Source: Candidatus Saccharimonadales bacterium
Lineage (GTDB): Bacteria; Patescibacteriota; Saccharimonadia; Saccharimonadales; 2-12-FULL-41-12
DNA length: 60,765 nt
Reading direction: 5' to 3'
Assembly: GCA_036278875.1 (NCBI GenBank)
Contig: DASUKF010000030.1
Location: 1-60,765, forward strand
Made by a program: the position numbers and the translations under genes. Under the pieces are notes generated by a model that was not told the origin of the DNA, did not search any database, and saw only the letters and a program-made list of their open reading frames with translations. Shown piece after piece: positions 4,804-54,966 of this stretch (its first letter is position 1; every line of letters starts with the position of its first letter).

Positions 4804-5679
4804 TTAAACCGGTTCGCCCGCGGGTTCGCTTTCTGTGTAGTTCTCTACGGCTGCCTCTAGCGGAACCAGGTACGCTACCAAATCGCGCCAATCCTCCTGC
4901 AGGACGGTACCTGCCGCGGAACCGGCTTTCATTTTGCCTGCCGGACACCCCCGCTCCTCACCGTCACTGCGCTCGATGTTCCTTTTGATCATATCCTGGG
5001 TCCTTGGAGCAAACCTTACTTTCGCGCCGCCTTCTCCTTGACTGAGCCTAAGGTTCCCGGTATGCACGTACGGCATTCCGGCATTTCTATGGACCGTTTC
5101 CAAAGCCCCTTCTTTAACGGCTGACATTTTCAGTAAACCGTAGCTTCCCTGGATAATTCCCAGATGGCTATCCTCGGGGACTTCTTGTTCCCTTAGAAGC
5201 TTGGTCGCGCCGCCAGCTAAGATGCTGGCGTCTAAAAACGCCGCCTGGGCTAAACTTGAAGCACTATCGGTATCACCGGCATCAAGATGGTTGCCGGCTA
5301 CGGTCGGCATACCCGCGGCCTTATACCCCCGGGTGAAAATTGAATTTTCGTTCGCGATCTCTGCCAAATGCCCGACAACGAAGTTAGCGGCTCTTTGCCG
5401 GTCTTCTACCTCGGCCGGCAATTGCCCCTTGACTTCTGCTTGGGCCAATAAGTCCAAGCCTGTCTTCAATAGAAACCGTACGGCAGGCACGTAATAGACA
5501 CTGCCGTCTTGTTTGCCGCCTTCTTTTTCAAAGATTTTGCGCGCACTGGCAAAAGTGTCCGCGTAATCACCGGTTTTACTGACTGCAAAAGCCTCGGTAT
5601 GAGCAACTATGATATCTGCCGAAGCTTCGGCAGGCAGTGTCAACTTTAAATCTTCGTTAAACAAAACGATTTCACTCAT
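4804..5679 (-). CDS. Hypothetical protein
   Basis: 291-aa ORF with no TM segments and no motif I recognise. Co-directional with alaS and mnmA. Confidence 0.55.
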   Translation of the reverse strand: MSEIVLFNEDLKLTLPAEASADIIVAHTEAFAVSKTGDYADTFASARKIFEKEGGKQDGSVYYVPAVRFLLKTGLDLLAQAEVKGQLPAEVEDRQRAANFVVGHLAEIANENSIFTRGYKAAGMPTVAGNHLDAGDTDSASSLAQAAFLDASILAGGATKLLREQEVPEDSHLGIIQGSYGLLKMSAVKEGALETVHRNAGMPYVHTGNLRLSQGEGGAKVRFAPRTQDMIKRNIERSDGEERGCPAGKMKAGSAAGTVLQEDWRDLVAYLVPLEAAVENYTESEPAGEPV

Positions 5680-6789: not shown

Positions 6790-7662
6790 CTAGCTGTCAA
6801 ACTTGCGGCGCAGAGAGAATATCTCATGTTTCCTACCAAGCCAGAAGGCCACTAATATAAGGGGTATAAGTAGCAGCGCCGGCCACCATATTACCTTGGT
6901 AACGGTCTTTGTAGGGATAGCGGCTGAAGAGCTCGCCCGGTCGGTAACTTCTCCATTGCCCACACCTACAAGCTGCAGGAAAGCGGTTTCTTTGTTCTTG
7001 TCGCTGGCCCTGATAAGCACATTGTATACGCCGGCGGATTTATATACATGCGAGATGTTGAACGTACCCGGAAACTCCTGGCTTATGATATCCGGCTGTG
7101 TTCCATCGCCCCAGTCCACGGTTATGGCATAGGGTCCGTTACCGCCGCTAAGTATGATGGGCCAGGTAAGCGTTTCGCCGGGATTCGCGCCCTTTTTCGC
7201 GAACGAACTGGACAATGATATCCGGTTGAGTCCCGAGAACTGTGAAACCGGGAACGTGACCGTTACTTTGTTGGAATCCGGACTTGACTGGCCAAGATCG
7301 TCATATTGCCTGGCAATCAGCTCATTTTTTCCGACGAACAGGTCTATCTGTATAGTGTAGCTCCCACCATTGCACACAGCCGAGCCCCCGAATACGCTGT
7401 TTTTAAATATCTTTACCAGTAAGCCGCTCTGGCATAGACCGGTCACTTTTACTGGAAGTTCTGTGAAGCTGGAACCGTTACCCGGAAAAGTTATGGTAGG
7501 CGCGTTTTTTGGCGGACCCCCCGGCACCTTGCCCTCTATTCCCAGGGGTTTTGAAGAAGTAGCCGCGAATACCGCAGGCGATAAGGATGCTATTAGCAAT
7601 ATCGCCCCGGCTATAAACAGCCCTATGTGTGATTTCCGGCTAAGAGAGAGTATGTTAGCCAC
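6790..7662 (-). CDS. Surface protein with PKD-like domain and C-terminal TM anchor
   Basis: Signal peptide (LFIAGAILLIASLSPAVFA). PKD-type motif ITVDWGDGT ... YKSAGVYNVLIRASD. C-terminal TM WWPALLLIPLILVAFWL plus a basic tail. Confidence 0.7.
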   Translation of the reverse strand: MANILSLSRKSHIGLFIAGAILLIASLSPAVFAATSSKPLGIEGKVPGGPPKNAPTITFPGNGSSFTELPVKVTGLCQSGLLVKIFKNSVFGGSAVCNGGSYTIQIDLFVGKNELIARQYDDLGQSSPDSNKVTVTFPVSQFSGLNRISLSSSFAKKGANPGETLTWPIILSGGNGPYAITVDWGDGTQPDIISQEFPGTFNISHVYKSAGVYNVLIRASDKNKETAFLQLVGVGNGEVTDRASSSAAIPTKTVTKVIWWPALLLIPLILVAFWLGRKHEIFSLRRKFDS

Positions 7663-7679
7663 GCCTCCACCTTTTGCAG

Positions 7680-8681
7680 TTATTTGCGGGATTTATATTT
7701 TTCCTCTTGGCCGCGGAGTCTCTTGTAGACGAAGAATATGGCTGTCAGTATTAGAATTACCACTAATAAGGCCAGTAAGCGCAGCCAGTTAGGTATTACC
7801 CAGAAATGTATCTCACTGACCAGCACGTCACCGCCCGTGCCGTAAGATATGCTCGCTACGGCGCTGTATCTGCCCGGGGAGGAGCCTATATTCTTTAAGC
7901 TGTCATGGAATATCCTAGTGCTGTCGGGCAATACGTTGCCGCGAGGGTCAGTATTGTTTACTTCATACTTATAAACTTCGTTGCCCTTGAAATCCTTAAT
8001 AGTGACCGTACCAAAAGGTTTAGCGAAGCTGTTGCCGGTATTCTTAAGCCCAAGCGCCAGAGAATCGGGCGATGATGAGAATATGCTGCCCGATTTGCCA
8101 CCTTTTTCGGCCTCGAAGGATATCAGCTGCAACTGTTCCTTGACATTTCCCGGGACGTTGACCAGGACTATATGGCCCAGGCTGGCCGTAAGGGTCACCT
8201 GCTTGCCGCTGTTATTGTCCTTGCCGCTAGATACCGGCTGGGCTATGAAGCGGATGACTCCGAAATAAGCTCCGGGTGGCTGGTCTGCAGGAACATTGAC
8301 CGGTATATTCAGCTTTTTGGACTCGCCGGACTTCATAGGTATGTCCGATATGGTCGATATGAAGTCCTTGATAGTATACGGGGACTTCTGGCTCTGATCG
8401 GTGATTATCTTGGGCGTTCCGGTATTGTTGTCCGATACGAAATCATCTATTTCGGGTTTGGCGATTATCTCTCCGCCGGTGACGTTCTTGAGCGTTATAG
8501 ATACGTTCTGGCTGGAACCGCGTTTTACATTCAGTTCCGTCCGGGTGGGAGATATCTGCAGTCCGCTGGCAGAACCGTTCTGATCCTGGGCAAAGCCTAT
8601 CTTGAATGATGCCAATAATAAGGCTGAAAATAGTAATACAAGCCCCAAAAAGATTCTTTTGGTTGAAATCGATATGTTCAT
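7680..8681 (-). CDS. DUF916/DUF3324-like (CscA-like) surface protein, C-terminally TM anchored
   Basis: 333 aa with a signal peptide. Two Ig-like halves (GLQISPTRTELNVKRGSSQNVSITLKN ... PPGAYFGVIRF; FGTVTIKDFKGNEVYKYEV ... PGRYSAVASISYG), then TM LLALLVVILILTAIFFVY and a basic tail. The family assignment is from remembered architecture, not a search. Confidence 0.5.
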   Translation of the reverse strand: MNISISTKRIFLGLVLLFSALLLASFKIGFAQDQNGSASGLQISPTRTELNVKRGSSQNVSITLKNVTGGEIIAKPEIDDFVSDNNTGTPKIITDQSQKSPYTIKDFISTISDIPMKSGESKKLNIPVNVPADQPPGAYFGVIRFIAQPVSSGKDNNSGKQVTLTASLGHIVLVNVPGNVKEQLQLISFEAEKGGKSGSIFSSSPDSLALGLKNTGNSFAKPFGTVTIKDFKGNEVYKYEVNNTDPRGNVLPDSTRIFHDSLKNIGSSPGRYSAVASISYGTGGDVLVSEIHFWVIPNWLRLLALLVVILILTAIFFVYKRLRGQEEKYKSRK

Positions 8682-8726
8682 TTTTTCTCCCTTTTGGATA
8701 ATTCTAGCATAATAATTATAAGCAAA

Positions 8727-9776
8727 CTAGAAGCTCGCTACGGCCGTATAGGTGAGGGTCGTGGAGTAAACGCCGAGAGGCTGGTCCGGACTAATATTTA
8801 TTATGTAGCTCACGGTCATGCGGTTGAACTCGGTAGCCATAGACGACGAGGATATGATTTCGCCCGGCTCAAACTTGAACAGATTCGGAGAATTATAAGC
8901 CGAAGCGGCGGCTAGAGTACCGGAACCCTCTCTGTTATGCCCTACATCAGGGCTGGAATTGTTCCTAAGATTTATACCGAATTGTTCGATGCCGGTGCGA
9001 GACTGGCTTTTTGAAACAAGCCTGTTTATGGTGTTATTGCCGGAGGTCAAAGTGGTCCCCAGTACCGATACGTTATAGCCGGTATTATCATTGGTAGCTC
9101 CGGCGAATTGAGTCGTTGCAAAAGATGTTCTGCCGGAGCTGAAATCGCCCAGGTTTATGCTAACGCCTGAAGCGGACTGGCATTGCAGACCCACCGTTAC
9201 ACCGGCACAAAATGTAAGATAAGGCGGTACAAATACGTTCACACCCAGCGAAGGCACGATACTGAAAGCGGCTACTCCGTTGTCGACATATACGCCGGTG
9301 GCATCAATATTAGAATAGGTGCTTATTCTCATATAAGTAGTGTGGTTAGGCGTATCCGGATTAACTATATTGCCGAAATCATAGCTGACCGTACCGGACG
9401 CGGCCAATGCTACGGGCCGGGTTATGACTATGCGGTTGGAAACCGTATTAGGATGGATGCTGAAACCGGTTTCACCGGTCTGTGAAATAATCGTAGCTCC
9501 GGAAGCGTCTATGCCGCTGGGGGCTACACAAGGCACATCAAAGAGCGGCGACTCGCAATATTCGAAGGCTATAGACCCCAGGGAGCCTGCCGTAGTCAGG
9601 TTAAACTGGAACTTATGATCCGTAGTGGCGCCGGCCTTGACACTGCCCAGTATTATGGAGCGGTTAGTCAGACTGGCGGCTTGCGTCGGAAGATAGAATA
9701 CGTACTGGATCAGCAGCAGCACCGAAGCCAGCAGTAAGAGTCCCTTGCCTGCGTATCTCTTACTTTCTTCTGCCAT
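8727..9776 (-). CDS. Secreted beta-rich surface protein, paralog 1 of 3
   Basis: 349 aa with a signal peptide ending TQA/AS. Shares LTxRS, (Y/F)xRI(S/T)TYS, EQFGINL and the C-terminal strand GVYSTTLTYTAVASF with the 9839 and 11919 genes. Confidence 0.65.
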   Translation of the reverse strand: MAEESKRYAGKGLLLLASVLLLIQYVFYLPTQAASLTNRSIILGSVKAGATTDHKFQFNLTTAGSLGSIAFEYCESPLFDVPCVAPSGIDASGATIISQTGETGFSIHPNTVSNRIVITRPVALAASGTVSYDFGNIVNPDTPNHTTYMRISTYSNIDATGVYVDNGVAAFSIVPSLGVNVFVPPYLTFCAGVTVGLQCQSASGVSINLGDFSSGRTSFATTQFAGATNDNTGYNVSVLGTTLTSGNNTINRLVSKSQSRTGIEQFGINLRNNSSPDVGHNREGSGTLAAASAYNSPNLFKFEPGEIISSSSMATEFNRMTVSYIINISPDQPLGVYSTTLTYTAVASF

Positions 9777-9838
9777 ATTGATTTATTGTAAGCTAAAGAA
9801 GTATAGGATTGCTACTACAGTAAGCCCGGACCGGTGAT

Positions 9839-11098
9839 TTAGTAAGTTGCTACTACTATGAAGTCGGCCTGGGTAGAATAGCTACCGGTAGGAGTAACGG
9901 CATTAGGTGTGGCAGCGAAGACGAGTATAAGCGATTCGTCGTCGACTGCGCCGCTGGAGGATGCTATCTGGTCAAGCGTACCCGTCTCGTCCCAGGCGTA
10001 ACCTTGCGCGTTGCTGGTCCCATAAGTATTGGAGCCTACGCCGTCATACTGAGTGTCCCTTTGCAGGTTATAGGCGCCTGTGCCGAAAGTACATGTATAG
10101 GCAAGCGTGCTGCCGCAGTTCACTCCGGCTATACTCATTCCGAAATCTTCCGTGCCGGCTACGAAAGCACTTTGGGTAGTGCCGGCACTGGTAATACATT
10201 GGTCGGTATTGACGGCACCCACGTTACAGCTGGCACCGGGCACTCTTAGCGCACCAAGATGGTTGCTGCCGGAATCTTGAATGGATTTATAGCTTACGGT
10301 CGCGCCTGATGAAGCATTTGTCCTAAGCATGGCTATGCCATTTTTATTATTTCCGTCGCTGCCTATGGCTACCGGTGAAGTATTGACCGAAGCTGCGTCC
10401 AGGGTGCCTAAGTCTACGGTAGTACCGCCTATAGCCGAACAGTCGGCACCGGGAGAAGTCGTGGCGTCATTTACCGATGTATTGCCTACACAGAAGTTCA
10501 GGATTTCCTGGATACGGGCGGATATGGTCAGTGTCTGCGTGACGGCAGAGGCTACCGTACCGGCATCAAGAGCATTGGCAGAATCATAGTCATTGGAACT
10601 GTAGGTTGTTATCCTCACAAAGAAAGTACTGTTAGTGGTGGAAGGGTTGGTTATAGTCGAAAACGGCACTGTCTTGGCACCGTTGGTATCGGTACCGCTG
10701 GCCCTGTTTATACAGATAACGCCAGCTCCGGGCGTACAGTCATTTGCACCTGTAGTATCCACGGCAAAGGCGGTGCCGGTGAACCCGGTAGGTGAACCGA
10801 TGACACGGCTGGAAAAACTGAGACCCGTGGGAGCGGTACAAGTACCTATGGCCGCCGTACAAGCCTGGAACATTATTGACAGTATTGTCGTAGCAGTCGG
10901 TGCGGTAAAGCCAAAGGTATATGTAGCGCCTGAGGCGGCAGGTACGGCTGTAGATATCGTTAGAGAGCGTGACGTGAGCTGAGACGCATAAGCGTTAGGC
11001 CCGCTTATAATTGGAATCGATACTGCTAATGTCAATATTGCTGCTTGCACGAACAGGAATAACGAGCGAAAGCGTATCCTTAGTGATAAGAGATTCAT
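9839..11098 (-). CDS. Secreted beta-rich surface protein, paralog 2 of 3 (own promoter; candidate major subunit)
   Basis: 419 aa with a signal peptide ending AYA/SQ. Thr/Ser/Gly/Ala-rich with several Cys pairs. Ends GSYSTQADFIVVATY. Preceded by a strong promoter-like element. Confidence 0.65.
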   Translation of the reverse strand: MNLLSLRIRFRSLFLFVQAAILTLAVSIPIISGPNAYASQLTSRSLTISTAVPAASGATYTFGFTAPTATTILSIMFQACTAAIGTCTAPTGLSFSSRVIGSPTGFTGTAFAVDTTGANDCTPGAGVICINRASGTDTNGAKTVPFSTITNPSTTNSTFFVRITTYSSNDYDSANALDAGTVASAVTQTLTISARIQEILNFCVGNTSVNDATTSPGADCSAIGGTTVDLGTLDAASVNTSPVAIGSDGNNKNGIAMLRTNASSGATVSYKSIQDSGSNHLGALRVPGASCNVGAVNTDQCITSAGTTQSAFVAGTEDFGMSIAGVNCGSTLAYTCTFGTGAYNLQRDTQYDGVGSNTYGTSNAQGYAWDETGTLDQIASSSGAVDDESLILVFAATPNAVTPTGSYSTQADFIVVATY

Positions 11099-11158
11099 TT
11101 TTACCTTGCCTTTTTTATTTTAAATTGTGCACTTTTTTGTTGTTTTAATGCTCGACTG

Positions 11159-11188
11159 ATTATATGCATAGTTATGACAGGCTTGCAA
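11159..11188 (-). promoter_or_regulatory. Sigma70-like promoter candidate inside the surface cluster, upstream of the 9839..11098 gene
   Basis: Read on the minus strand: TTGCAA (11188-11183), 18-nt spacer, TATAAT (11164-11159). It lies in the only large gap (137 nt) within the cluster. Confidence 0.4.
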
Positions 11189-11235
11189 ATAAAATGCTTA
11201 AGATTCTTTCACGAGTTTTCCACAGGGCATACAGC

Positions 11236-11916
11236 TCATTTGGCCCGAAAACTCCACGCTATGTTGACGAATTGTGCGAACTGAGGCATGAACTCGAGGT
11301 CATGGTAAACGATATAATACTCGTTTACTTTGCCGTTACTGCCCGTAAGCGGCACCTGGTAGTTACCTTTCACCTGGCCGATGACTACCGTATTGGAAGT
11401 ACCGTCCACCTGGCACTTAACCCTTACGCCATCGACTACTCCTTCAACGGGATTATTGTCGCCCGGACGTATAATATCCTTTAAATAGTCGCGGCAATGT
11501 CCGCTTACGTCACCTACGCTAAAACGGTCAGTGTTTATCCTTACGGGCAACACGTGCGTAACCAGCAGGTCCCGGGGCAAAGAATTTACATACACGATAA
11601 GGTCGCTTTTAACTATATTTTTATTCGAGCTTCTATAGACGAATTTGGCGCTTGTGGATTCCTTCGGCACGAAATGCCAGGATTTATCCGTTTCAAAACT
11701 GAAATAACGCGTACTGAAATTCTGAAACGGGTTGAAATCTTTTGATTTAAAATCCGTCTGTGGCCGGTCAATTTTGTTTTCGTTCGCCGCATACCAAATG
11801 AAGAGCAGATAGCACAGCACGACAAACAGCAGCAAAAGGGTCAATATAAAGATGATGCGCTTGTACTTGCGCAGCACCACGTATTTAGGCAAAGTGAATT
11901 TGTAGTTATAAGGCAT
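11236..11916 (-). CDS. Hypothetical N-terminally anchored membrane protein of the surface cluster
   Basis: 226 aa. TM IIFILTLLLLFVVLCYLLFIW near the N-terminus, then a beta-rich ectodomain. Starts 2 nt after the stop of the upstream paralog gene. Confidence 0.6.
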   Translation of the reverse strand: MPYNYKFTLPKYVVLRKYKRIIFILTLLLLFVVLCYLLFIWYAANENKIDRPQTDFKSKDFNPFQNFSTRYFSFETDKSWHFVPKESTSAKFVYRSSNKNIVKSDLIVYVNSLPRDLLVTHVLPVRINTDRFSVGDVSGHCRDYLKDIIRPGDNNPVEGVVDGVRVKCQVDGTSNTVVIGQVKGNYQVPLTGSNGKVNEYYIVYHDLEFMPQFAQFVNIAWSFRAK

Positions 11917-11918
11917 AG

Positions 11919-12671
11919 CTAGTAGGTGGCTATTACTATCAGGTCCTGGGTAAAGACGTACTCGCCCGCCAGCGACAGACTGCTGATGTCATATATATAT
12001 GAAATGGTGTAATCAGTCCTGCCCGAGCTTTTATCAGACCTGGCAATGACATCTCCTTTGTTGTACTTATAGACGTTTGCGGTGTCATAACCCGGAGTAG
12101 CATAGCCGTAACCGAAAGTTGAGTCGGGAGCCTGCGAAGGGTCCGCACCGAAAGTGGTCGGGCTGGTATTCGCCTTCAGGTTTATACCGAACTGCTCCGT
12201 GCCGGGACTGGCGGCGGCCTGTGAAGCCATAGGCGTTATCTGATGCGTGTTATATGTCGGCGGATCGGAATTCATAATAACGGAATATCCGCTGGCCAGA
12301 TACGCCCGTACATAAAATGTCGAAGTAGTGGTAGAAGTGGAGCTGGGCGAAAGGGTACCCAGGTCGGTGTTGCCGCCGGTAACGTAGACTTCCAGATATG
12401 GTTCGTCCTTGGTGTTGAAACCGGCGTTGGCCTGATAATTCGTCGACGAGGTATTGCCTATGGTCTGCTCCCCGACCGTCTGCTGGGCATTGTAGTGGGC
12501 TGAATTCGCGTCCAGCTCTCCGCCGGGGCCGAAATGGGATTCTTCTATCTTATAGTTGGTCGATGAAGTCTGGGCGAATGCCTTTATTGGCATTACGGCC
12601 ATGATAAAAACCAGAAACAATACAGCCGGAAGATATCTCTTGAAGCTGATCTGTTTTGATTTCTTTTTCAT
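11919..12671 (-). CDS. Secreted beta-rich surface protein, paralog 3 of 3 (short form)
   Basis: 250 aa with a signal peptide ending AFA/QT. Shares TEQFGINLKAN and the C-terminal strand GEYVFTQDLIVIATY with the two larger paralogs. Confidence 0.65.
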   Translation of the reverse strand: MKKKSKQISFKRYLPAVLFLVFIMAVMPIKAFAQTSSTNYKIEESHFGPGGELDANSAHYNAQQTVGEQTIGNTSSTNYQANAGFNTKDEPYLEVYVTGGNTDLGTLSPSSTSTTTSTFYVRAYLASGYSVIMNSDPPTYNTHQITPMASQAAASPGTEQFGINLKANTSPTTFGADPSQAPDSTFGYGYATPGYDTANVYKYNKGDVIARSDKSSGRTDYTISYIYDISSLSLAGEYVFTQDLIVIATY

Positions 12672-12783: not shown

Positions 12784-13791
12784 ATGGACCAGAAGCCAGA
12801 CAACAACCAGCAGGATGAACAAGCTTCTTTAGAGACCCTTGAGACACCCGCCGGGTCCGAGCAGACCCAGGCAGGCAGCAGCCAGGTTCCGGAAAATCAG
12901 CAAACAACCCCCGAACCGCAGGCTGCCGGGCCCGGGAAATCATTGGTCAGCCGGCTTTTGGACAAGGTGAAGTCATTTAATATATATCTGCTGCTTTTCA
13001 TCCTGGTCATAGTTTTATCCGGACTTATAACTTTCGTGGCATACCAGAAAAGCAAACAATCCGAACAAAAAGGCCCCAACGTTTCCTCCCAGGATATAAA
13101 CCAGGACGTGCTGAAACAGCTGCGCAACAGCAACGTCAGCGTCGGCGAGCCCAAGCAGATACTAAGTGTGGAAGCAAATGCCGTTTTCAGCGGTTCGGTA
13201 CTGGTGCGGGGCGATTTTGAGAGCGCAGGGCAGATAAAATCCGAGGGCAACATAACCACGCCGGGGTTGAACGTAGCGGGTACCGGCACTTTCCAGACTT
13301 TGCAGGCGGGCAAGCTGCAGATATCCGGAGACAGCCAGCTGCAGGGCAACCTGAGCCTGCAGAAGAGCCTGTCCGTAAGCGGTTCCGGCAACTTCGGCGG
13401 TACATTGACAGCCAGCAAGCTGAACGTTCAGTCGCTGGAGCTGGCAGGCAACCTGGTCATCAGCAGCCATATAGCATCGTCAGGCGGTACGCCGTCCAAA
13501 GCAAGCGGTAATGCGCTGGGCAGCGGCGGGACCGCGTCCTTAAGCGGCAGCGACACGGCAGGCACCATCACCATCAATACCGGCGGCAGTCCGCACGCGG
13601 GATGTTTCGTATCTGTCGGTTTCGCCAAGTCGTTCAATAGTACGCCGCATGTAGTAGTAACACCGGTAGGAAGCAGTGCAGCCGCTATAAACTATTACGT
13701 TACCCGTTCTTCAAGCGGCTTCAGTCTATGCACAACATCATCTGCGCAGGGCAGCAAGAACTTCGCCTTCGACTACATCGTCATCAATTAA
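12784..13791 (+). CDS. Membrane-anchored protein with beta-helix-like G/S/L repeats
   Basis: 335 aa. Disordered Q/E/P head, TM IYLLLFILVIVLSGLITFVAY, then quasi-repeats (GNITTPGLNVAGTGTFQTLQAGKLQISGDSQLQGNLSLQKSLSVSGSGNFGGTLTASKLNV) resembling bactofilin-like or polymer-forming beta-helix repeats. Confidence 0.6.
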   Translation: MDQKPDNNQQDEQASLETLETPAGSEQTQAGSSQVPENQQTTPEPQAAGPGKSLVSRLLDKVKSFNIYLLLFILVIVLSGLITFVAYQKSKQSEQKGPNVSSQDINQDVLKQLRNSNVSVGEPKQILSVEANAVFSGSVLVRGDFESAGQIKSEGNITTPGLNVAGTGTFQTLQAGKLQISGDSQLQGNLSLQKSLSVSGSGNFGGTLTASKLNVQSLELAGNLVISSHIASSGGTPSKASGNALGSGGTASLSGSDTAGTITINTGGSPHAGCFVSVGFAKSFNSTPHVVVTPVGSSAAAINYYVTRSSSGFSLCTTSSAQGSKNFAFDYIVIN

Positions 13792-14053
13792 ACATCCAGG
13801 AAGACGGTGACTTGGTTATCGCGCACATGCATAATGCCGCGGTCAATCTTGTATCTTTGCTGCTCCTTGCCTTCACCGCGCACAACGACTTCCCCGGCAT
13901 TCAAAATAGTCATAAATCTATGGTGCTGGGGCAGTACATCAAATGGCCCGGTGTCATTAGTTGCTGAAACACTTACCGCGTTTCCGTCGAAATATGTCCG
14001 AAATGGCGAATATATCTTGATGTGTATCCTGTCATGGATCGCCGCCTTGTCCA

Positions 14054-14054
<1 letters not shown>
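13788..14054 (-). CDS. atpC: F1 ATPase epsilon subunit, beta-sandwich domain only
   Basis: 88 aa (HIKIYSPFRTYFDGNAVSVSATNDTGPFDVLPQHHRFMTILNAGEVVV). Last gene of the atp operon, with its start overlapping the atpD stop (ATGA-type). Confidence 0.85.
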
Positions 14055-16216
<2,162 letters not shown>

Positions 16217-16224
<8 letters not shown>

Positions 16225-17647
16225 TCTTTGCCTCCACGAGCACGTCTTTCTTGAGTTTTTCAACCGTTTTATTGTAGTCCGATTCTTTCTCTACCTTGGC
16301 CGCATAATCATTGACCAGGTTTTTCAGATTGGTAACATCTATCTTTTCCCCGGATTGTTTGTTCAGCACAATGTCCAGCATCAACTGCTGGGACACGACG
16401 CCGTAAACATCCGTAGGCCCCTGGGTCAGGAGCGTGAACACGTTCTTGCCTTTTTCCAGAACCGTCTTGGATTCGTCCGTAAGCTCGGAGCCGAACCTGG
16501 AGAACTCCTCGGCCTGGCGGAACTCTGCTAAAAGCTTCAATGTCTTGGCGGCAAGGTCCTTCTGGTTGTCGGTATGGCCTACACCGCCTACCCTGGTGAC
16601 GCTAAGTCCTATATTGATGGCGGGGCGGACGCCGCTTCTGAACACGTTCATATCCAATATCCATTGTCCGTCGGTTATAGACATGATGTTGGTAGACAAG
16701 AACGAGGTTATATCGCCGCCGCTTGCAAGCACTATGGGTATTGCGGTCAGACAATTACCGCTTCCTTCCAGGCGGCCGGCACGTTCCAGCAGGCTGGAGT
16801 GCGCGTAAAACATATCGCCGGGGTATGAATCTCTGCCCGGACTTACTCCGGAAAGCAGAGATATCTCCCTGTACGCATGGGCGTGGCTGGTAAGGTCGTC
16901 ATAGATTATTATCGTGTCCTGATTCTGCTTCTGCCATAAATATTCGGCCATCGAGCAGGCCACGTAAGGCGCCAGATAAGTCGATATCAAAGAATCGAAC
17001 ATGGTCGAAACTACGACTATCGAGCTTTTGAGCGAATCGGTGGCTTCGAGTTTGTTTATCAGCATATCGACGTCGCTTTTGCGCTTGGCGATAAGACAAT
17101 ATACCGTTATCTGATCGGTGTTCTTCTGGTTGATGGTAAGCTGTGTCGCCAGAGTGGTCTTGCCGGATTTGCTGTCGCCGATTATGGCTATCCTCTGCCC
17201 GCGTACTATCGGGAATATGGAGTCTATGGACATGACGCCGCTTTCCAGCTGGGCTTCCAGGAGTTTCCTGGAATGAAGCGGCGGCGCATCATTGAACACC
17301 GGCCATACGCTGTCGGCGACTATCGGACCTTTGCCGTCCAGGGGATGGCCACTGGTCGATACGACCCGTCCGATGAAATTCTTGCCAACGCGACAGACCA
17401 GCTTGTCATGCTGCAATACGGCCAGGCTTCCGACACTTACGTTCCTGTTGCCCATATGAAGCACTAGTACGCTGTCTTCCATTATCTGTTTTACGAAGCC
17501 TTTGCTTCCGTCCTGAAACAAAACCAGCGAATGCAGATTTATCGGGTTCAAGCCTTTTATCTTGACGGTGAATTTGTCAATCCCCACCACTTCGCCTACG
17601 GGCTGGCCGCTTTTGACCAAACTGTCAAAATGGGTCTGCGCGCTCAT
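16217..17647 (-). CDS. atpA: F1 ATPase alpha subunit
   Basis: Walker A GDSKSGKT, IIYDDLTSHAHAYREISLL, PGRDSYPGDMFYAHSSLLERAG. 476 aa. Confidence 0.92.
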
Positions 17648-36694: not shown

Positions 36695-37918
36695 TTAACG
36701 GTATATGTCTTGTAAGCCTACGATAGATGCACAACCCCAGGGTTGCCATCCGCTGGCCAGGTAGGTGTCACGAGCCTTTTGATCTTGAACGTAGGGTGGA
36801 GCATCAGCAGGATCACGATAGCCTGCATAATTGTTCCAAGTTCCCCAAGCAAACTGATAAGCACCTCTGTAGCTTGGATTACTTTTATTGGCATAATTCC
36901 CGCCTGATTCGCAACCGCGAAGAGCGGCTAAAGCCGCATCAAACCCACCGCCAAAACCAGTGCTTTTCGTTCCCTCTATGACCACCCTGGTCTTCGGCTG
37001 TTTGACGATTACGCTCTGGATAATATTACGGCTGACTTCTTTATCATGTTTGAATATGACTTCGTAGGTAACTATGCGCTTGCCTGGTGCACCCGGGTCG
37101 ACAACTTTTATGGTGCCCGCATCAAGCGTGGCGTCATAGCTGGTATCGACAGGCGGAGCTACCGATTCTTCTTCATTGATGACCTGGCGGCCGTTGCGAA
37201 GCACAAGGACGCTCATACCCTTTCTTATGGGTGTGTCCGGTCCGGGTATGACCTTGTCTTTTTTCTTTAAATTTAGATGAATGCCTTTTTCTTGCAATAG
37301 CCCCCCGACCGTTTTTGCCTGTGTTCTAACACCTACCTTCTTGCCGTATAAATTCAGTTTGAGCGGCACCGCCCTGTCAATCGAAACCAGCTCGCCGATA
37401 ACATCGTCGTGAACGGCAGTGTCGGGTAAGGCTACCGTAACATTGTCTTCCGGATAGAGATTAAAGCCGGCTTTTTCGGCCAGATTTCTCGGCGTACTGG
37501 ATGCAATCCTGGTAGATACTTTCCTGCCATTGCTGTCTACGACAGTAACAGGTTTTGCGCGGTACACATTGATATGCAAGTCATCTTCGCGTATGGGGCT
37601 GTTGACTCCCGGCTCGACTATGTCCTGTTTGCTAAGCTGGATGCCAATGCGTTTTAGAAGCTCACCGACCGTAGGCGCACGTGTCGGCAAAGTCTTTTCC
37701 TGGCCATCAACATAGACCTGCACACGTTTTACATCCGCGCCTTCTACGGTCGTACCACCAAAGAAAAAGAAAACGAAGCCCGAAACAACACCGAGCACAA
37801 GAAAAGTAGCTAGCGGTACCAGCACCTGATGCCTGTGCACTTTGGGCGGCTTTACTTTCCTGACGCCAAGGAAAGTCTCTATCTCCGGTTGTTTTTTCTT
37901 CCTCTTGAAAATCTTCAT
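36695..37918 (-). CDS. RpfB-like muralytic protein (TM - DUF348 repeats - G5 - Rpf/transglycosylase-like domain)
   Basis: 407 aa with an N-terminal TM. Repeated V.V.VDG......T....TVGELL blocks (DUF348-like) and a G5-like segment. C-terminal CESGGNYANKSNPSYRGAYQFAWGTW ... WQPWGC resembles the Rpf catalytic domain. Confidence 0.7.
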   Translation of the reverse strand: MKIFKRKKKQPEIETFLGVRKVKPPKVHRHQVLVPLATFLVLGVVSGFVFFFFGGTTVEGADVKRVQVYVDGQEKTLPTRAPTVGELLKRIGIQLSKQDIVEPGVNSPIREDDLHINVYRAKPVTVVDSNGRKVSTRIASSTPRNLAEKAGFNLYPEDNVTVALPDTAVHDDVIGELVSIDRAVPLKLNLYGKKVGVRTQAKTVGGLLQEKGIHLNLKKKDKVIPGPDTPIRKGMSVLVLRNGRQVINEEESVAPPVDTSYDATLDAGTIKVVDPGAPGKRIVTYEVIFKHDKEVSRNIIQSVIVKQPKTRVVIEGTKSTGFGGGFDAALAALRGCESGGNYANKSNPSYRGAYQFAWGTWNNYAGYRDPADAPPYVQDQKARDTYLASGWQPWGCASIVGLQDIYR

Positions 37919-49886: not shown

Positions 49887-52064
49887 TTATTGTATATCAG
49901 CTGCCAGTTTCTTCTTATCAAAGCAGAAGCCGAACATGCTTCCTTTGCCCTCGGTGCTTTCGAACAGGATACTGCCCCCTTGTGCATCAACGACCTTCTT
50001 AGCCATGAACAGGCCCAGGCCGGTACCGTCGGGGCGGGCATTGCGGGCATTTCCCGCCCGGAAGAACTTGTTAAACAGATGTTTCTGGTCCTCTTTCGGT
50101 ACGCCTATGCCGTCATCTTTGACTGTGAAGTAGACATGGCTCTCATCCTCGGCAACCGTCACTTTTATATGGCCGCCGGAACGCGTGTAATAGATAGCGT
50201 TATCTATAAAATTCATGACGACCTGCCTCACCTTTGTTTCGTCCAGCATCAGTTTAGGCAGTTTTTTTGGCCGGTCATACTTGAGCTCTATCTTCTTGCC
50301 CTTGGCCGTCTCCGTCAGCTGGTCCAATTCGCCTTTGACTACTTCTCCCAAATCGGCAGGCTGGGCGTCTATGACGAATTTGCCCGTCTTAAGCCGCGAA
50401 ACGTTCAAAAGATCGGCAATCAGGTAAACCATGCGCTGTGAACTCACGAAGGCCTGGTTAAGAAGTGTTTGCTGCTGCTTGGTCAATTTGCCCGCATCAC
50501 CTTCAATCACCATGCTCATGTAGCCTTTTACCGATGTCAGCGGTGTTCTTAGCTGATGTGAAGCCATGCTGATGAACTCATCCTTGGTTTCGTCCAGCTC
50601 GCGCAGTTTCTTGTTGGTACGCTGTAATTTTTCCGTGGCGTCGCTGACTTTCTGCTGCAAGGTAACATTGAACTGCTGTATCTCCTCAAAACGTATCGAG
50701 TTCTGTATGGCGATAAGCAGCTCGTCCGCGACGATTTCAAGAAGACGCAAATCCTGCTTGTCGTAGACGTTTCCGCTTTTTTTGTCACCGAGTATAAGGT
50801 AATACATGGCCTCTCTGGTCATATCGCTTCCCGGAAGCAAGCGCACCAGCATAGCGATGTTATTACGGAAAAGCACGTCCTTTAGCACCTTGTAGTCCGA
50901 ACCCAGCTCATCGGTCATTACCGTCTTCTTACCTGTCTTTATCAGTTCTTGTTTAAGCAAGACGGCTTCCTGCTCTGATAGATTAAGCTCCCCGGAGCCT
51001 ATAAGTCTTTCGTGCGCCGTGGGTGTAGCTTTTATCATGACGTAGCAGAACTGGCTTTTCAGGTTGTCCTGAATAACTCTGGTCGTGTGCCTAAGCATTA
51101 TTCCTAGCTCTATATTCTCTACCACCGTGCTGTTAAGCTCGTCCAGAAACTGCTGAGGCTCATATGCATCCCTGTAAAATACCCTCTTGGTCTGCCTGTC
51201 AAAGAACCTTTTAGTAGGAGAAAAAATGATTGCGCTTAAAAGCGCTAAAAATATATAGAACCCCCTCTCGGTAACAGAACTTATTTGGTTGTCCTGTGCC
51301 AAAAACGATGAAATGCCAAATATAATTGAACCGTAGACAATACCTATGAATCCTAGCGATAACAGATAAGCTACGCTCCTAGCAATAGTGCGTTTTATGT
51401 CTAATAAGCGATGTTTAACTATTGCATAGCCTATAATCCCGGCAAAAAAAGCAGCATAAACAGGACTGAAAGTTATAAAGCTGGAGTTTGAGAAGAGAAC
51501 GGGAAATATAAAATTAGTTAAAGGAAGAAGAGTAAAGAGCAAGAACATTCCGATAATTACAAATCGAAACTGTAGCTTCTCACGGTCACTTTTAACCTTT
51601 AAGTATCTTTTAAATAAATAAGCGGGGCCGGCTAGAAAACTAAGTACAGCATGAGCTAGAAATAAAAGCATGCCCGGGCCGGCGATAGGTGTTATATTTC
51701 CGACTGAATCTACTTTAACCCCTGTAAAAAGAAAAGGAGAGAGTGTAATTGCTAGAGTTAAGACGCAAAAGGCGGCAATGTATTTAAGCCTTCTAGTAAA
51801 GTTAATCGAGGAATCCGGAAAAATTTGTGATAGAAATAAGAAAATGGAATTCGACAGAACAACAAAAAACATAGTCATGCGAATAAGAAAAAGCTGATAG
51901 TCTCCACTATTTAAAGACAAGTAGCTTACTATGGACCAGCCGGATAAGCTAAGAGCAAGGAGGGCAAAGAGACGGTTTGTAATACTCCGGCTATTTTTTA
52001 TAAAAACAGTGAGCCCTAATATCAGGTTTACAAAAACGGAAAAGATTAAAATAAAAAGGGTCAT
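49887..52064 (-). CDS. Sensor histidine kinase with multi-TM N-terminal sensor domain
   Basis: 725 aa with about 6-7 N-terminal TM helices and a central GAF/PAS-like region. H-box SHQLRTPLTS, N box DNAIYYT, G boxes DDGIGV and GTGLGL. Confidence 0.88.
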   Translation of the reverse strand: MTLFILIFSVFVNLILGLTVFIKNSRSITNRLFALLALSLSGWSIVSYLSLNSGDYQLFLIRMTMFFVVLSNSIFLFLSQIFPDSSINFTRRLKYIAAFCVLTLAITLSPFLFTGVKVDSVGNITPIAGPGMLLFLAHAVLSFLAGPAYLFKRYLKVKSDREKLQFRFVIIGMFLLFTLLPLTNFIFPVLFSNSSFITFSPVYAAFFAGIIGYAIVKHRLLDIKRTIARSVAYLLSLGFIGIVYGSIIFGISSFLAQDNQISSVTERGFYIFLALLSAIIFSPTKRFFDRQTKRVFYRDAYEPQQFLDELNSTVVENIELGIMLRHTTRVIQDNLKSQFCYVMIKATPTAHERLIGSGELNLSEQEAVLLKQELIKTGKKTVMTDELGSDYKVLKDVLFRNNIAMLVRLLPGSDMTREAMYYLILGDKKSGNVYDKQDLRLLEIVADELLIAIQNSIRFEEIQQFNVTLQQKVSDATEKLQRTNKKLRELDETKDEFISMASHQLRTPLTSVKGYMSMVIEGDAGKLTKQQQTLLNQAFVSSQRMVYLIADLLNVSRLKTGKFVIDAQPADLGEVVKGELDQLTETAKGKKIELKYDRPKKLPKLMLDETKVRQVVMNFIDNAIYYTRSGGHIKVTVAEDESHVYFTVKDDGIGVPKEDQKHLFNKFFRAGNARNARPDGTGLGLFMAKKVVDAQGGSILFESTEGKGSMFGFCFDKKKLAADIQ

Positions 52065-52138
52065 TGAAAGATCTTTTTATCTATAAGCATAATCACAATA
52101 TACCGGAAAATTCTCTTCTGTCCTACAGATAACCTAAT

Positions 52139-53329
52139 CTAACGATTCATCATCAGATTAATCAGTTCCTGCTTGCGCTTTTTATACGCCTGGGATTTAA
52201 TTGCAGGATTCAGCTGTTCTTCAGGACCCATTAGGAAGCGTCCGGAATTTATCTCCTGTTCTAAAAGAATCTTTTTGGCTGCGTATGCAACATAGAGTCC
52301 GGATAACACTGCCGCACCGCCCAATTGAGGCCAGCTTGGCAAAGTTTTTCCTACTTCAAGCAGAGACTCAATCATACGAAGCGGTACATTTTCCAGATTA
52401 ACAAAATACTTTCCGATTATAGCCCCTAACTCTTTTCTTTCCATGGGAGCATCTGAAAGAATTCGATCTATAACTTCCTGGGGTAAAATACCGTGCAGTA
52501 TTGGCTGGCGGCTGTCTAAATCGAAGCGTTCTATATCTAACAATATGTCATCGCCATCATCAGTAGCCATTACCACGGGTATCGCCTCTTCTTTCGCTTT
52601 TAAGCGCAGGTGGACCTTCATGCGCAGGAAATCCATCTCATCTACTATGATATCGGGCCTGTATCTGTCTAGTATTTCCTTCAGGTTATTCTCATCCAGT
52701 CCATTTTTATAGTGCACTTGTTCTAGGAAAGGATCGAGTTCGCTGATTTTTTTAGCTACTATATCCACCTTATGTATAGCGACCTGGTCATAGGAAGCAC
52801 GTATTCGATTAAGATTTGTCGGGTCCAAGCTGTCCATATCCACCAGTATGTAGCGGCTGCCTACACCTTGCATGAGTAACGAATCAACAACGTTACTGCC
52901 GACACTTAGGCCTGCTATAAGAATAGTTTTATTATTTATTAATTTTTTTCTCTCATCTTCAGTTATTAGATTCCTGTTTCTGGAACCGCGGAGTCTTCTT
53001 AGATCTTCTGATGGAGGGAAGTGTACAAGTGTTCGATTCCAGGGGAAATACACCCAGTTTCCATATTTTTTAATATTCTCTCCGACAGTTTCGGTTCTGA
53101 ACGCCTTGTATGCTTCATCATCAGGAATGTCGATGTGCGAGGGTTTTTCTATATGATAAAGCTCTTCCAAGGCTATTTCTATATTGTCAGATACAAATTG
53201 AATTGCGTTTTTTTCATGCAAGGCTTTTAGCTTATTTTCGTCTGCCTCTGAATCAAGATCTAAAATAATCGGTTCTTCCCACCCTAATATCTTTTTATTT
53301 AATGGTATATAAGTTATTTCTTCACCCAT
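52139..53329 (-). CDS. ThiF/MoeB/E1-like adenylyltransferase-fold protein with N- and C-terminal extensions
   Basis: 396 aa. KTILIAGLSVGSNVVDSLLMQGVGSRYILVDMDSLDPTNLNRI is the ThiF-type Rossmann plus NLNR motif. GGGAG SD lies 9 nt upstream. Its start overlaps the upstream gene by 16 nt. Confidence 0.7.
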   Translation of the reverse strand: MGEEITYIPLNKKILGWEEPIILDLDSEADENKLKALHEKNAIQFVSDNIEIALEELYHIEKPSHIDIPDDEAYKAFRTETVGENIKKYGNWVYFPWNRTLVHFPPSEDLRRLRGSRNRNLITEDERKKLINNKTILIAGLSVGSNVVDSLLMQGVGSRYILVDMDSLDPTNLNRIRASYDQVAIHKVDIVAKKISELDPFLEQVHYKNGLDENNLKEILDRYRPDIIVDEMDFLRMKVHLRLKAKEEAIPVVMATDDGDDILLDIERFDLDSRQPILHGILPQEVIDRILSDAPMERKELGAIIGKYFVNLENVPLRMIESLLEVGKTLPSWPQLGGAAVLSGLYVAYAAKKILLEQEINSGRFLMGPEEQLNPAIKSQAYKKRKQELINLMMNR

Positions 53330-54831
53330 TGTTGTTTACTCCCGCTTTTAAAATGCTCTGCATGCTCATAACCCCATAGTTCTACCAGTGGCTTCACTAC
53401 CTCACCTACCTCTTTAAAAGTTTCCGTATATTCGGAGCTTTCTTTCGTCAGTTTTTCATGGATTATATCCCGAAGTTTCATCTTAATATTTTCATTTTCA
53501 ACCACGCCTTTTCTCAACTCTATGTGTATTTTCAGATGCTGGCGGCCCCTGCTGCCATAATCCGAGTGCATACTGAATTTGCCCGTGCTTAGCAAAGAAG
53601 CCTCCTGGCCCAGCAAGGCCCTTCTGACAGTGTCCGGATAAATCAAAAATGAGTAATAGCTTACACTGAAATCATCGCGCTCATAGATGTATATGAAAGG
53701 CAGATTCCATCTGCCTTTCGCTATGCCCGCCTTTAAAAGCCCGGCTTTTATATCTATTCCGGCCTCAGTCAAGACAGAATATACGTCTTTCTTAGTTATG
53801 ATACCGCCGTAATCCTTGAGGTTGTATCGGACCAGGGGCAGACCGCTATACGAACTGCATATAAGATTGTTTTCTTCCTGCTCGAAGTAAAAGAGTTCGG
53901 GATTATACTGGGCGAAGGTAGGCTGCCTGTGCTTTTCCGGAAAAATAAGATCCAGTTTGTCATCCTGAATCAGCCGGCGTCTTATATAAACCGACTCAGG
54001 AGTTTCATGTGCCAGCGTACCCTGGTCTACAGTACCGTAATGGTTAAGCGAGAACCTGTAGATATCTTCCGGCGCGCTTACATCGATGACATAATCACGG
54101 AAGCTTTCACTGAAGGCTTCCGCTGAAAAAACAAAGCCTAGATCATACTTTTTCCAGTCTATTCCTTCCTGCTTGCCGTCGTCTAGAATATCTTTCAAAA
54201 AAGGCGCGTAGGCACCGATGATTATCTGATCGAACGAGTCGCCGAGCTCTTTGACGGCATCGATAACGCCCTGTTTATGAATACCGGGAGTAATGATACT
54301 CAGGTCGTATCCGGCGCTGTCCGCTATAAGCCTGAGCGCTTCATAGGTAAAGAGCCCGCCTATCCAGGCCCCCATAGGAAAAGCGACAATGTACAGGGTG
54401 GTTTTGCTTTGGATTTGAAAATTATTTCTAAGATAAAGATCCGCCATTATGGCGTATTGCCAGTCTTGGGAGGCTTCCCGGGGGAAATAATACGGTTTGC
54501 CGGTGGAGCCGGAAGTAGTGGATATCGTCCATCTGCCGCGGCCGAAATCACCGTCCCAGCACATCTGTTCCTTCGGATAAGCACGAAGGTAATTATCCTT
54601 ATCTATGGTGGGAACCCTGCCCATATCTTCGGCGTTTCTGATAGAAGACGGGTTTATATTATTTTTGGATAAAAAATCCTGGTATGCGGGAACTCTGGCA
54701 GCCATTTCATGAAATAGCTTAAGAGCCCTGTTCTGTCCGCGCCTAATGAATAAATCTTCCGGAGAGTTTAACAGGCGTTTTTGTATTACATCTGTATTCC
54801 TGTAACCTTTCGGGAGTAAAAACTCGGACAT
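53314..54831 (-). CDS. PaaK/CapK/F390-synthetase-like adenylate-forming enzyme
   Basis: TSGSTGKPYYFPR (AMP-binding P-loop of the ANL/PaaK group) and LVRYNLKDYG. The ORF track extends to 54933. I prefer ATG 54831 (MSEFLLPK) because a promoter-like element for the divergent receiver gene covers 54927-54954. Confidence 0.7.
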   Translation of the reverse strand: MSEFLLPKGYRNTDVIQKRLLNSPEDLFIRRGQNRALKLFHEMAARVPAYQDFLSKNNINPSSIRNAEDMGRVPTIDKDNYLRAYPKEQMCWDGDFGRGRWTISTTSGSTGKPYYFPREASQDWQYAIMADLYLRNNFQIQSKTTLYIVAFPMGAWIGGLFTYEALRLIADSAGYDLSIITPGIHKQGVIDAVKELGDSFDQIIIGAYAPFLKDILDDGKQEGIDWKKYDLGFVFSAEAFSESFRDYVIDVSAPEDIYRFSLNHYGTVDQGTLAHETPESVYIRRRLIQDDKLDLIFPEKHRQPTFAQYNPELFYFEQEENNLICSSYSGLPLVRYNLKDYGGIITKKDVYSVLTEAGIDIKAGLLKAGIAKGRWNLPFIYIYERDDFSVSYYSFLIYPDTVRRALLGQEASLLSTGKFSMHSDYGSRGRQHLKIHIELRKGVVENENIKMKLRDIIHEKLTKESSEYTETFKEVGEVVKPLVELWGYEHAEHFKSGSKQQWVKK

Positions 54832-54966
54832 GTTTCTTTTAGAACCTTTATGCTTATCTTTATTGTAGGGTATGTGGTGTGAGTTATCTATAGGATAGCT
54901 AGAAAAAATAAAAATGTCATTCCAAGCTTGCATTAGGCCCTTTTCTAGATTTTAATCATAAGGGTA

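Follow-up and report, generated by a model that had tools for sequence, protein, structure and literature searches.

A compact gene cluster of probable Pam pilus type in a Saccharimonadales genome and its relation to WxL surface clusters

Organisation of the locus and family membership of its genes

We analysed a stretch of 60,765 nucleotides (contig DASUKF010000030.1 of assembly GCA_036278875.1, forward strand) from Candidatus Saccharimonadales bacterium, hereafter called the window. This work concerns six co-directional open reading frames (ORFs) on the minus strand of the window at 6790-12671, whose products are 250, 226, 419, 349, 333 and 290 amino acids (aa) long in the order of transcription, and which we denote g1 to g6. 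With a probability of roughly 80%, these six genes constitute a compact pam operon that codes for a Pam pilus of the type described in the candidate phyla radiation (CPR). The features of the region are listed below; the tail-fibre-like gene in the last line is a divergent neighbour of the operon and lies outside the six.

11919-12671, minus strand: g1, PamT, predicted tip subunit, 250 aa
11236-11916, minus strand: g2, N-anchored accessory protein of an unnamed family, 226 aa
11159..11188, minus strand: promoter-like element TTGCAA-18-TATAAT in the gap between g2 and g3 (a motif match; hexamers and spacing kept in L001)
9839-11098, minus strand: g3, two-domain Pam pilin of a divergent, Cys-rich subfamily, 419 aa
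8727-9776, minus strand: g4, two-domain Pam pilin, 349 aa
7680-8681, minus strand: g5, predicted membrane-anchored pilus chaperone, PamC/PamD-like, homologue of WxLIP/DUF916, 333 aa
6790-7662, minus strand: g6, PamR, predicted RbmA-like terminator/anchor, 290 aa
12784-13791, plus strand: N-anchored "tail-fibre-like" beta-helix gene with a weak Bactofilin match (26.1 bits)

According to these coordinates, the gaps between consecutive genes from g1 to g6 are 2, 137, 62, 45 and 17 nt. A hydropathy script combined with direct reading identified an N-terminal signal-like hydrophobic segment followed by an AxA-type site in g1, g3, g4, g5 and g6. By the same script, g2 has one transmembrane (TM) segment, which is N-terminal (residues 13-46), and g5 and g6 have an additional C-terminal TM segment (291-324 and 253-277, respectively). 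The LPXTG motif was absent from all six proteins in a motif check, no large beta-barrel gene that could represent an usher was present in the operon or its conserved flanks, and no further pam paralogues were found within the window. An earlier sequence-only reading had reported six co-directional ORFs of these lengths in this interval, an export or anchor signal on each of them, and the lack of an usher, a sortase and an LPXTG partner; the ORF listing, the hydropathy analysis and the searches for a beta-barrel gene and an LPXTG motif bear this out.

The Pam system of ultrasmall CPR/Saccharibacteria has been described in a 2026 preprint (bioRxiv 10.64898/2026.03.03.709456), in which cryo-electron microscopy (cryo-EM) of Candidatus Mycosynbacter amalyticus resolved two filament types, made of PamA and PamB, whose subunits are joined by donor-strand exchange through a linker strand. 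From AlphaFold models and Foldseek searches, the same work proposes that PamC and PamD are chaperones of the PapD/FimC kind with a C-terminal TM helix each, that PamT is the tip and PamE a third pilin, and that PamR is both the terminator and the membrane anchor. It also reports that an usher or other envelope-spanning machine is absent, and that the pam genes are constantly accompanied by ATP synthase genes and a tail-fibre-like gene.

Release 20 of NCBIfam offers models with curated cutoffs for PamT (NF058579), PamR (NF058578) and the C-terminal domain of CPR Pam pilins (NF058581, CPR_Pam_pilin_C), and three of the six proteins exceed them. The product of g1 scores 314.5 bits against the CPR_pilus_PamT equivalog (cutoff 240), that of g6 scores 376.5 bits against the CPR_pilus_PamR equivalog (cutoff 300), and that of g4 scores 152 bits against the pilin domain (cutoff 55), which is also found in g1 (160 bits). 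Neither g5 nor g2 has an NCBIfam match, and neither family has an NCBIfam model. The sequence-only reading had suggested an apparatus of an undescribed type; since g1, g6 and g4 pass the Pam cutoffs, this description no longer applies. Its other suggestion, a chaperone-assisted fibre locus without an usher or a sortase, coincides with the proposal that the Pam preprint makes for this family. The locus would therefore specify a host-contact fibre apparatus of an already described type, which presumably binds the host.

Properties of the encoded proteins

In the g1 protein, the signal peptide is followed by an N-terminal part, some 60 aa long, that carries S-x-N-Y hairpin-like repeats, and by the Pam pilin C-terminal domain. 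In the family alignment, three conserved repeats of this type occupy residues 34-97, and a linker-like segment, EPYLEVYV, stands directly ahead of the C-domain, whereas PamT of M. amalyticus is described without a linker (bioRxiv 10.64898/2026.03.03.709456). In the g4 protein, the conserved linker VPPYLxFCAG joins an N-terminal beta-sandwich to a C-terminal acceptor domain whose last residues are ...ASF; judging from the alignment, this linker is presumed to be the donor strand.

In contrast to g4, g3 stays under the NF058581 cutoff with 29.6 bits. When its family alignment (36 sequences) was compared with that of g4 using hhalign, the two profiles matched with a probability of 100% and an E value of 7.9e-39 over 319 columns. 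Because this match extends over both domains and the linker, which reads IQEILNFCVG in g3, we regard g3 as a divergent Pam pilin. The g1 and g4 proteins are in turn related to each other (phmmer, E 1e-11), so that the paralogy of the secreted proteins, noticed in the sequence-only reading, holds in both comparisons. In the alignments, a conserved (A/G)(T/S)(Y/F)-COOH forms the C-terminus of each of the three pilin classes. Ten Cys residues are conserved in g3 and four in g4; Thr, Ser, Ala and Gly make up 49% of g3, and Lys 0.7%. The 339 homologues of g3 are all unnamed. Since g3 has a conserved promoter-like element of its own and a fibre-like composition, it is probably the main shaft subunit.

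Two observations concern the annotation of g3. The database holds a product of 259 aa for this gene from the same contig (100% identity, 62% coverage); the gene call of the source was apparently cut too short, as the 419-aa ORF is backed by homologues with 100% coverage. In addition, the g3-type subfamily also escapes NF058581 elsewhere: the copies in locus L033 (L033 9992-12770) give no match and the window copy stays below the cutoff, while the pilins at the position of g3 exceed it in L002 (73 bits) and L005 (98 bits).

The element TTGCAA-18-TATAAT (11188..11159, minus strand) lies inside the 137-nt gap upstream of g3, where the sequence-only reading had noted it as a strong element. L001, the nearest relative, has kept the two hexamers at the same distance, with a spacer that has diverged. 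On the other hand, promoter-like matches across the region occur at chance level (9 found against 8.5 expected). Judging from its sequence and conservation, the element may act as a promoter. A weak terminator-like hairpin (8721-8739, minus strand; 3 GC pairs and a poor T-run) overlaps the stop codon of g4, just ahead of the chaperone gene; by analogy with other pilus operons, it could reduce read-through from the pilin genes to the chaperone and anchor genes.

For g5, an AlphaFold2 model calculated with 53 relatives has a mean predicted local distance difference test score (pLDDT) of 88.5. It comprises a signal helix, two beta-sandwich immunoglobulin (Ig)-like domains, a flexible loop of low confidence (150-166) that precedes a long strand, and a C-terminal helix (298-332). 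The best Foldseek matches in the PDB are the WxLIP structures of Enterococcus faecium, 9i1y and 9i25, the latter bound to a long WxL protein; they cover both domains with E values of 6e-12 to 4e-11. The next matches are the chaperones CfaA, Caf1M, CsuC, EcpB, FimC and DraB (E 7e-9 to 5e-7).

At the sequence level, g5 matches PF06030 (DUF916 / WxLIP_PGBD) with 28.1 bits, marginally over the cutoff of 27.3, and 47 of the 53 relatives match this family at E<=0.01. No match to g5 was obtained with the DUF3324 hidden Markov model (HMM), and no Pfam match to the PapD families PF00345/PF02753 in g5 or its relatives. The sequence-only reading had taken g5 for a DUF916+DUF3324 (CscA-like) protein with a PapD-like strand in its first domain. 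Both the profile search and the structural search that were applied to this claim uphold the DUF916 part; the DUF3324 part lacks an HMM match. The strand is recognised as the N-terminal segment SGLxISPTR(T/S)EL, which is nearly invariant, and the model as a whole resembles the chaperones of chaperone-usher systems. Taken together, the profile match and the predicted fold make homology between the Pam chaperone and WxLIP/DUF916 well supported.

Sequence searches of the PDB with g3, g4 and g5 and with two family profiles, that of g4 among them, gave chance-level matches only, and therefore PamA/PamB and WxLIP are out of reach by sequence from these queries. The features of g5 that characterise it as a chaperone are the PapD/FimC-like fold of the model and the C-terminal TM helix. 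Within SGLxISPTR, Arg47 is present in 42 of the 53 sequences, and a GExK motif is also kept in the family. In PapD, Arg8 and Lys112 hold the C-terminal carboxylate of the subunit. By analogy, the Arg of SGLxISPTR and GExK, together with the conserved C-termini of the pilins, may mirror this contact.

The g6 protein carries two Ig/PKD-like domains between a signal peptide and a C-terminal TM helix, and its family alignment contains a conserved N-terminal strand motif, GSxG(L/I)EGTVPxPPP. It had previously been read as a PKD protein with a C-terminal TM segment; the segment is there, but the PKD match falls below the Pfam cutoff (21.2 against 23.5 bits). Several relatives have a second, divergent PamR-like gene downstream of mnmA/alaS (L002 12375-13370; also L048, L077, L097, L101 and L107), and none was found in the window.

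The remaining protein, g2, has an extracytoplasmic domain of about 180 aa and matches nothing in Pfam or NCBIfam. A word-indexed search gave only 11 close relatives, whereas at E<=1e-3 an exhaustive profile search collected at least 454 representative clusters, which with few exceptions are full-length (about 225 aa). An AlphaFold2 model from 10 sequences was poor (pLDDT 47). We considered a Cys/His enzyme, sortase- or peptidase-like, and rejected it: invariance is limited to W80, C141 and C168, with H140, H205 and D206 variable and no conserved residues of catalytic appearance.

Gene order among relatives

Loci related to that of the window were collected from metagenomes by a scan with the PamR alignment, and the best 80 of 474 confirmed relatives were retained; complete loci are those that span the tail-fibre-like gene through PamR (n=28). 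In addition, five Saccharimonadales metagenome-assembled genomes from a genome collection (L001-L005) were compared. These five genomes and the loci L033-L040 have the same gene order. In all 28 complete loci, PamT is present, the order PamT, pilin(s), pilin, chaperone, PamR is invariant, and there is exactly one chaperone. They are flanked by the divergent tail-fibre-like gene and ATP synthase genes on one side and by mnmA/alaS on the other. In the window, atpG, atpD and atpC lie at 13788-16263, and mnmA and alaS lie on the opposite side. Wherever a locus extends far enough, the tail-fibre-like gene is the neighbour of PamT or g2 and is encoded on the other strand.

The series PamT, g3-type pilin, g4-type pilin, chaperone, PamR is found in 21 of the 28 complete loci, and five have two g3-type pilin genes. 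The g3-type pilins (one to three copies) always stand between PamT and the g4-type pilin. In 47 of 47 loci the next gene after the g4-type pilin is the chaperone, and in 61 of 61 the next gene after the chaperone is PamR. Since the order with five core genes and a single chaperone prevails in complete loci, the window has the common compact architecture, and by this comparison M. amalyticus looks like an expanded version.

The gene g2 is present in only 5 of the 28 complete loci. Its position also differs: in L033 and L037-L040 its place is between PamT and the tail-fibre-like gene, and, among the loci with g2 examined, it follows PamT only in the window and L001. Thus g2 is a recurrent, non-universal and lineage-variable membrane-anchored accessory member of the locus, and the joint conservation that was looked for in all six genes applies to the five core genes, which keep a constant order, and not to g2.

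Pilus, WxL-type complex or common ancestry

The window and the Pam system of M. amalyticus agree in several respects. Both have the equivalogs of PamT and PamR, pilins of two domains in which a conserved linker accompanies the Pam C-domain, and a chaperone that resembles PapD and carries a TM helix at its C-terminus; both lack an usher, have ATP synthase and tail-fibre-like genes as neighbours, and come from the Saccharimonadia lineage. Several points weigh against the assignment. M. amalyticus has two chaperones (PamC and PamD) and three two-domain pilins (PamA, PamB and PamE), whereas the window has one and two, respectively, and it has in addition the N-anchored g2, which maps to no named Pam component. 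The divergent g3 subfamily falls under the NCBIfam domain cutoff, g5 is without any NCBIfam match, and g3, g4 and g5 are assigned at the family level rather than one to one to PamA/B/E and PamC/D. The chaperone, tip and anchor roles in the preprint (bioRxiv 10.64898/2026.03.03.709456) are AlphaFold predictions and not experiments, and the pilus of the window is predicted from its genes.

Compared with classical and archaic chaperone-usher pili (Pap/Fim, CFA/I, Caf1 and Csu), the common features are the two-Ig chaperone fold, a tip subunit gene in the same operon, an incomplete Ig-like subunit domain that is completed by a donated strand, and a conserved aromatic subunit C-terminus. However, the Pam system has neither an outer membrane nor an usher; its chaperone is membrane-anchored rather than soluble; its donor strand is the inter-domain linker rather than an N-terminal extension; and its fibre is extended, not coiled (bioRxiv 10.64898/2026.03.03.709456).

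Starting from the family membership of the genes, the chaperone fold of g5 predicted by AlphaFold2, and the synteny, we propose the following order of assembly. All six products would leave the cytoplasm through Sec. In each pilin, the Ig-like domain at the C-terminus would be short of one strand, and the membrane-anchored g5 would fill the groove temporarily (donor-strand complementation) until the inter-domain linker strand of an incoming pilin displaces the chaperone strand (donor-strand exchange), which would drive polymerisation. PamT (g1) would be the first acceptor and hence the distal tip, and g3 and g4 would form the shaft. Insertion of the N-terminal strand of PamR into the last pilin would close the fibre, and the C-terminal helix of PamR would tie it to the cytoplasmic membrane. 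An usher, a sortase or an ATPase would play no part. We infer this mode of filament formation for the window pilins on the basis of homology and of the motifs conserved in the linker and at the C-terminus. The fibre would be expected to make the first contact with the bacterial host of the epibiont.

The most serious alternative is a surface complex of the WxL/Csc type, in which g5 would retain the secreted proteins at the cell wall by non-covalent contacts, as an adhesin platform, and no long polymer would be formed. A minimal WxL cluster consists of a small WxL protein, a large WxL protein and WxLIP, the last with the architecture DUF916-DUF3324-TM (PMC9772566, PMC10599100). According to the same papers, the small protein is a single domain after the signal peptide, the WxL domain of the large protein is always C-terminal, a hairpin strand of WxLIP is predicted to fill a gap in the WxL sandwich, and an LPxTG protein is frequent in the clusters. 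The window shows a parallel arrangement. Its g5, C-terminal TM helix included, is a homologue of WxLIP in sequence (PF06030, with most of its relatives) and in predicted structure, where the best matches include the complex with a long WxL protein; and both loci follow the logic of a short and a long protein with a common C-terminal domain beside a TM-anchored two-Ig protein.

At the sequence level, the partner domain distinguishes them. PF13731 has no match in g1, g3, g4 or 46 relatives, even at E values up to 1-10, the pilins contain no W-x-L motif, and their Trp count is 0-1; a WxL domain in the pilins is thus ruled out at the level of HMM and motif. In addition, g5 is without a DUF3324 HMM match, an LPxTG protein is absent from the pam locus, where the TM protein PamR would be the anchor, and the organisms belong to another phylum (the relatives are Saccharimonadales, as against Bacilli). 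The parallel with Lactobacillales and the WxL-type complex, both put forward in the sequence-only reading, find no support on these points. Moreover, g1 and g4 pass the models of a family seen by cryo-EM as filaments, whereas long filaments are unreported for WxL proteins, and the strongly conserved linker strand fits an exchange from subunit to subunit. We therefore consider a complex of this type unlikely. A chance neighbourhood of unrelated surface proteins or adhesins in two or more transcription units, with no joint structure, for which the internal promoter-like element ahead of g3 and the minority occurrence of g2 might speak, is highly improbable in view of the invariant order of the five core genes across all loci examined, the acceptor domain common to three of the proteins, and the chaperone-like fold directly beside the pilin genes.

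By the definition given above, the locus is no WxL cluster, but it may be a distant relative of one. An extension of this idea, which we put forward tentatively and with the odds somewhat against it, is that CPR Pam pili and Firmicutes WxL/Csc clusters are two branches descending from a single ancient monoderm system of the "chaperone without usher" kind. PamT may then correspond to the small WxL protein, the Pam pilins to the large WxL protein, and the Pam chaperone to WxLIP. If this is true, WxL domains would be strand-deficient acceptors, donor-strand exchange might be the way in which WxL proteins assemble as well, and the g2 family would be an additional, unnamed component of the CPR branch. 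Neither WxL nor DUF916 is mentioned in bioRxiv 10.64898/2026.03.03.709456, and in the literature searched the terms "WxL" and "donor strand" occur together only in a 2013 review, each once.

Apart from the pam locus, three features of the window deserve a note. A low-GC stretch at 49887-54933 (0.41-0.45, against about 0.50 elsewhere) contains three genes, namely a histidine kinase (49887-52064), a ThiF/E1-like gene (52139-53329) that matches the N-terminal half of the Rv1355c family and, weakly, E1-E2 models of PADLOC, and a PaaK-like adenylate-forming enzyme (53314-54933) that overlaps the latter; this stretch may have been acquired as an island, or it may form a conjugation-type (E1-like) module. 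A 291-aa ORF between mnmA and alaS (4804-5679) has no family match and no tblastn match in the syntenic genomes L001-L005, and may be lineage-specific or not a real gene. A secreted cell-wall-active enzyme with DUF348, G5 and transglycosylase domains (Rpf-like; 36695-37918) could bear on the epibiotic lifestyle.

Pam pili are thought to be the first reach of Saccharibacteria to their bacterial hosts, so that recognition of the operon matters for the annotation of CPR genomes. Among the relatives sampled, the form with a single chaperone and five core genes is the usual architecture. The current NCBIfam models miss the chaperone family as well as a large g3-type pilin subfamily, both of which stay "hypothetical", and the widespread accessory family of g2 belongs to the pam locus. 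Finally, through its homology with WxLIP/DUF916, the chaperone ties the CPR pilus to a surface system of enterococci, listeriae and lactobacilli that is associated with virulence and poorly understood, and it points to a way in which the WxL system might assemble that can be tested.

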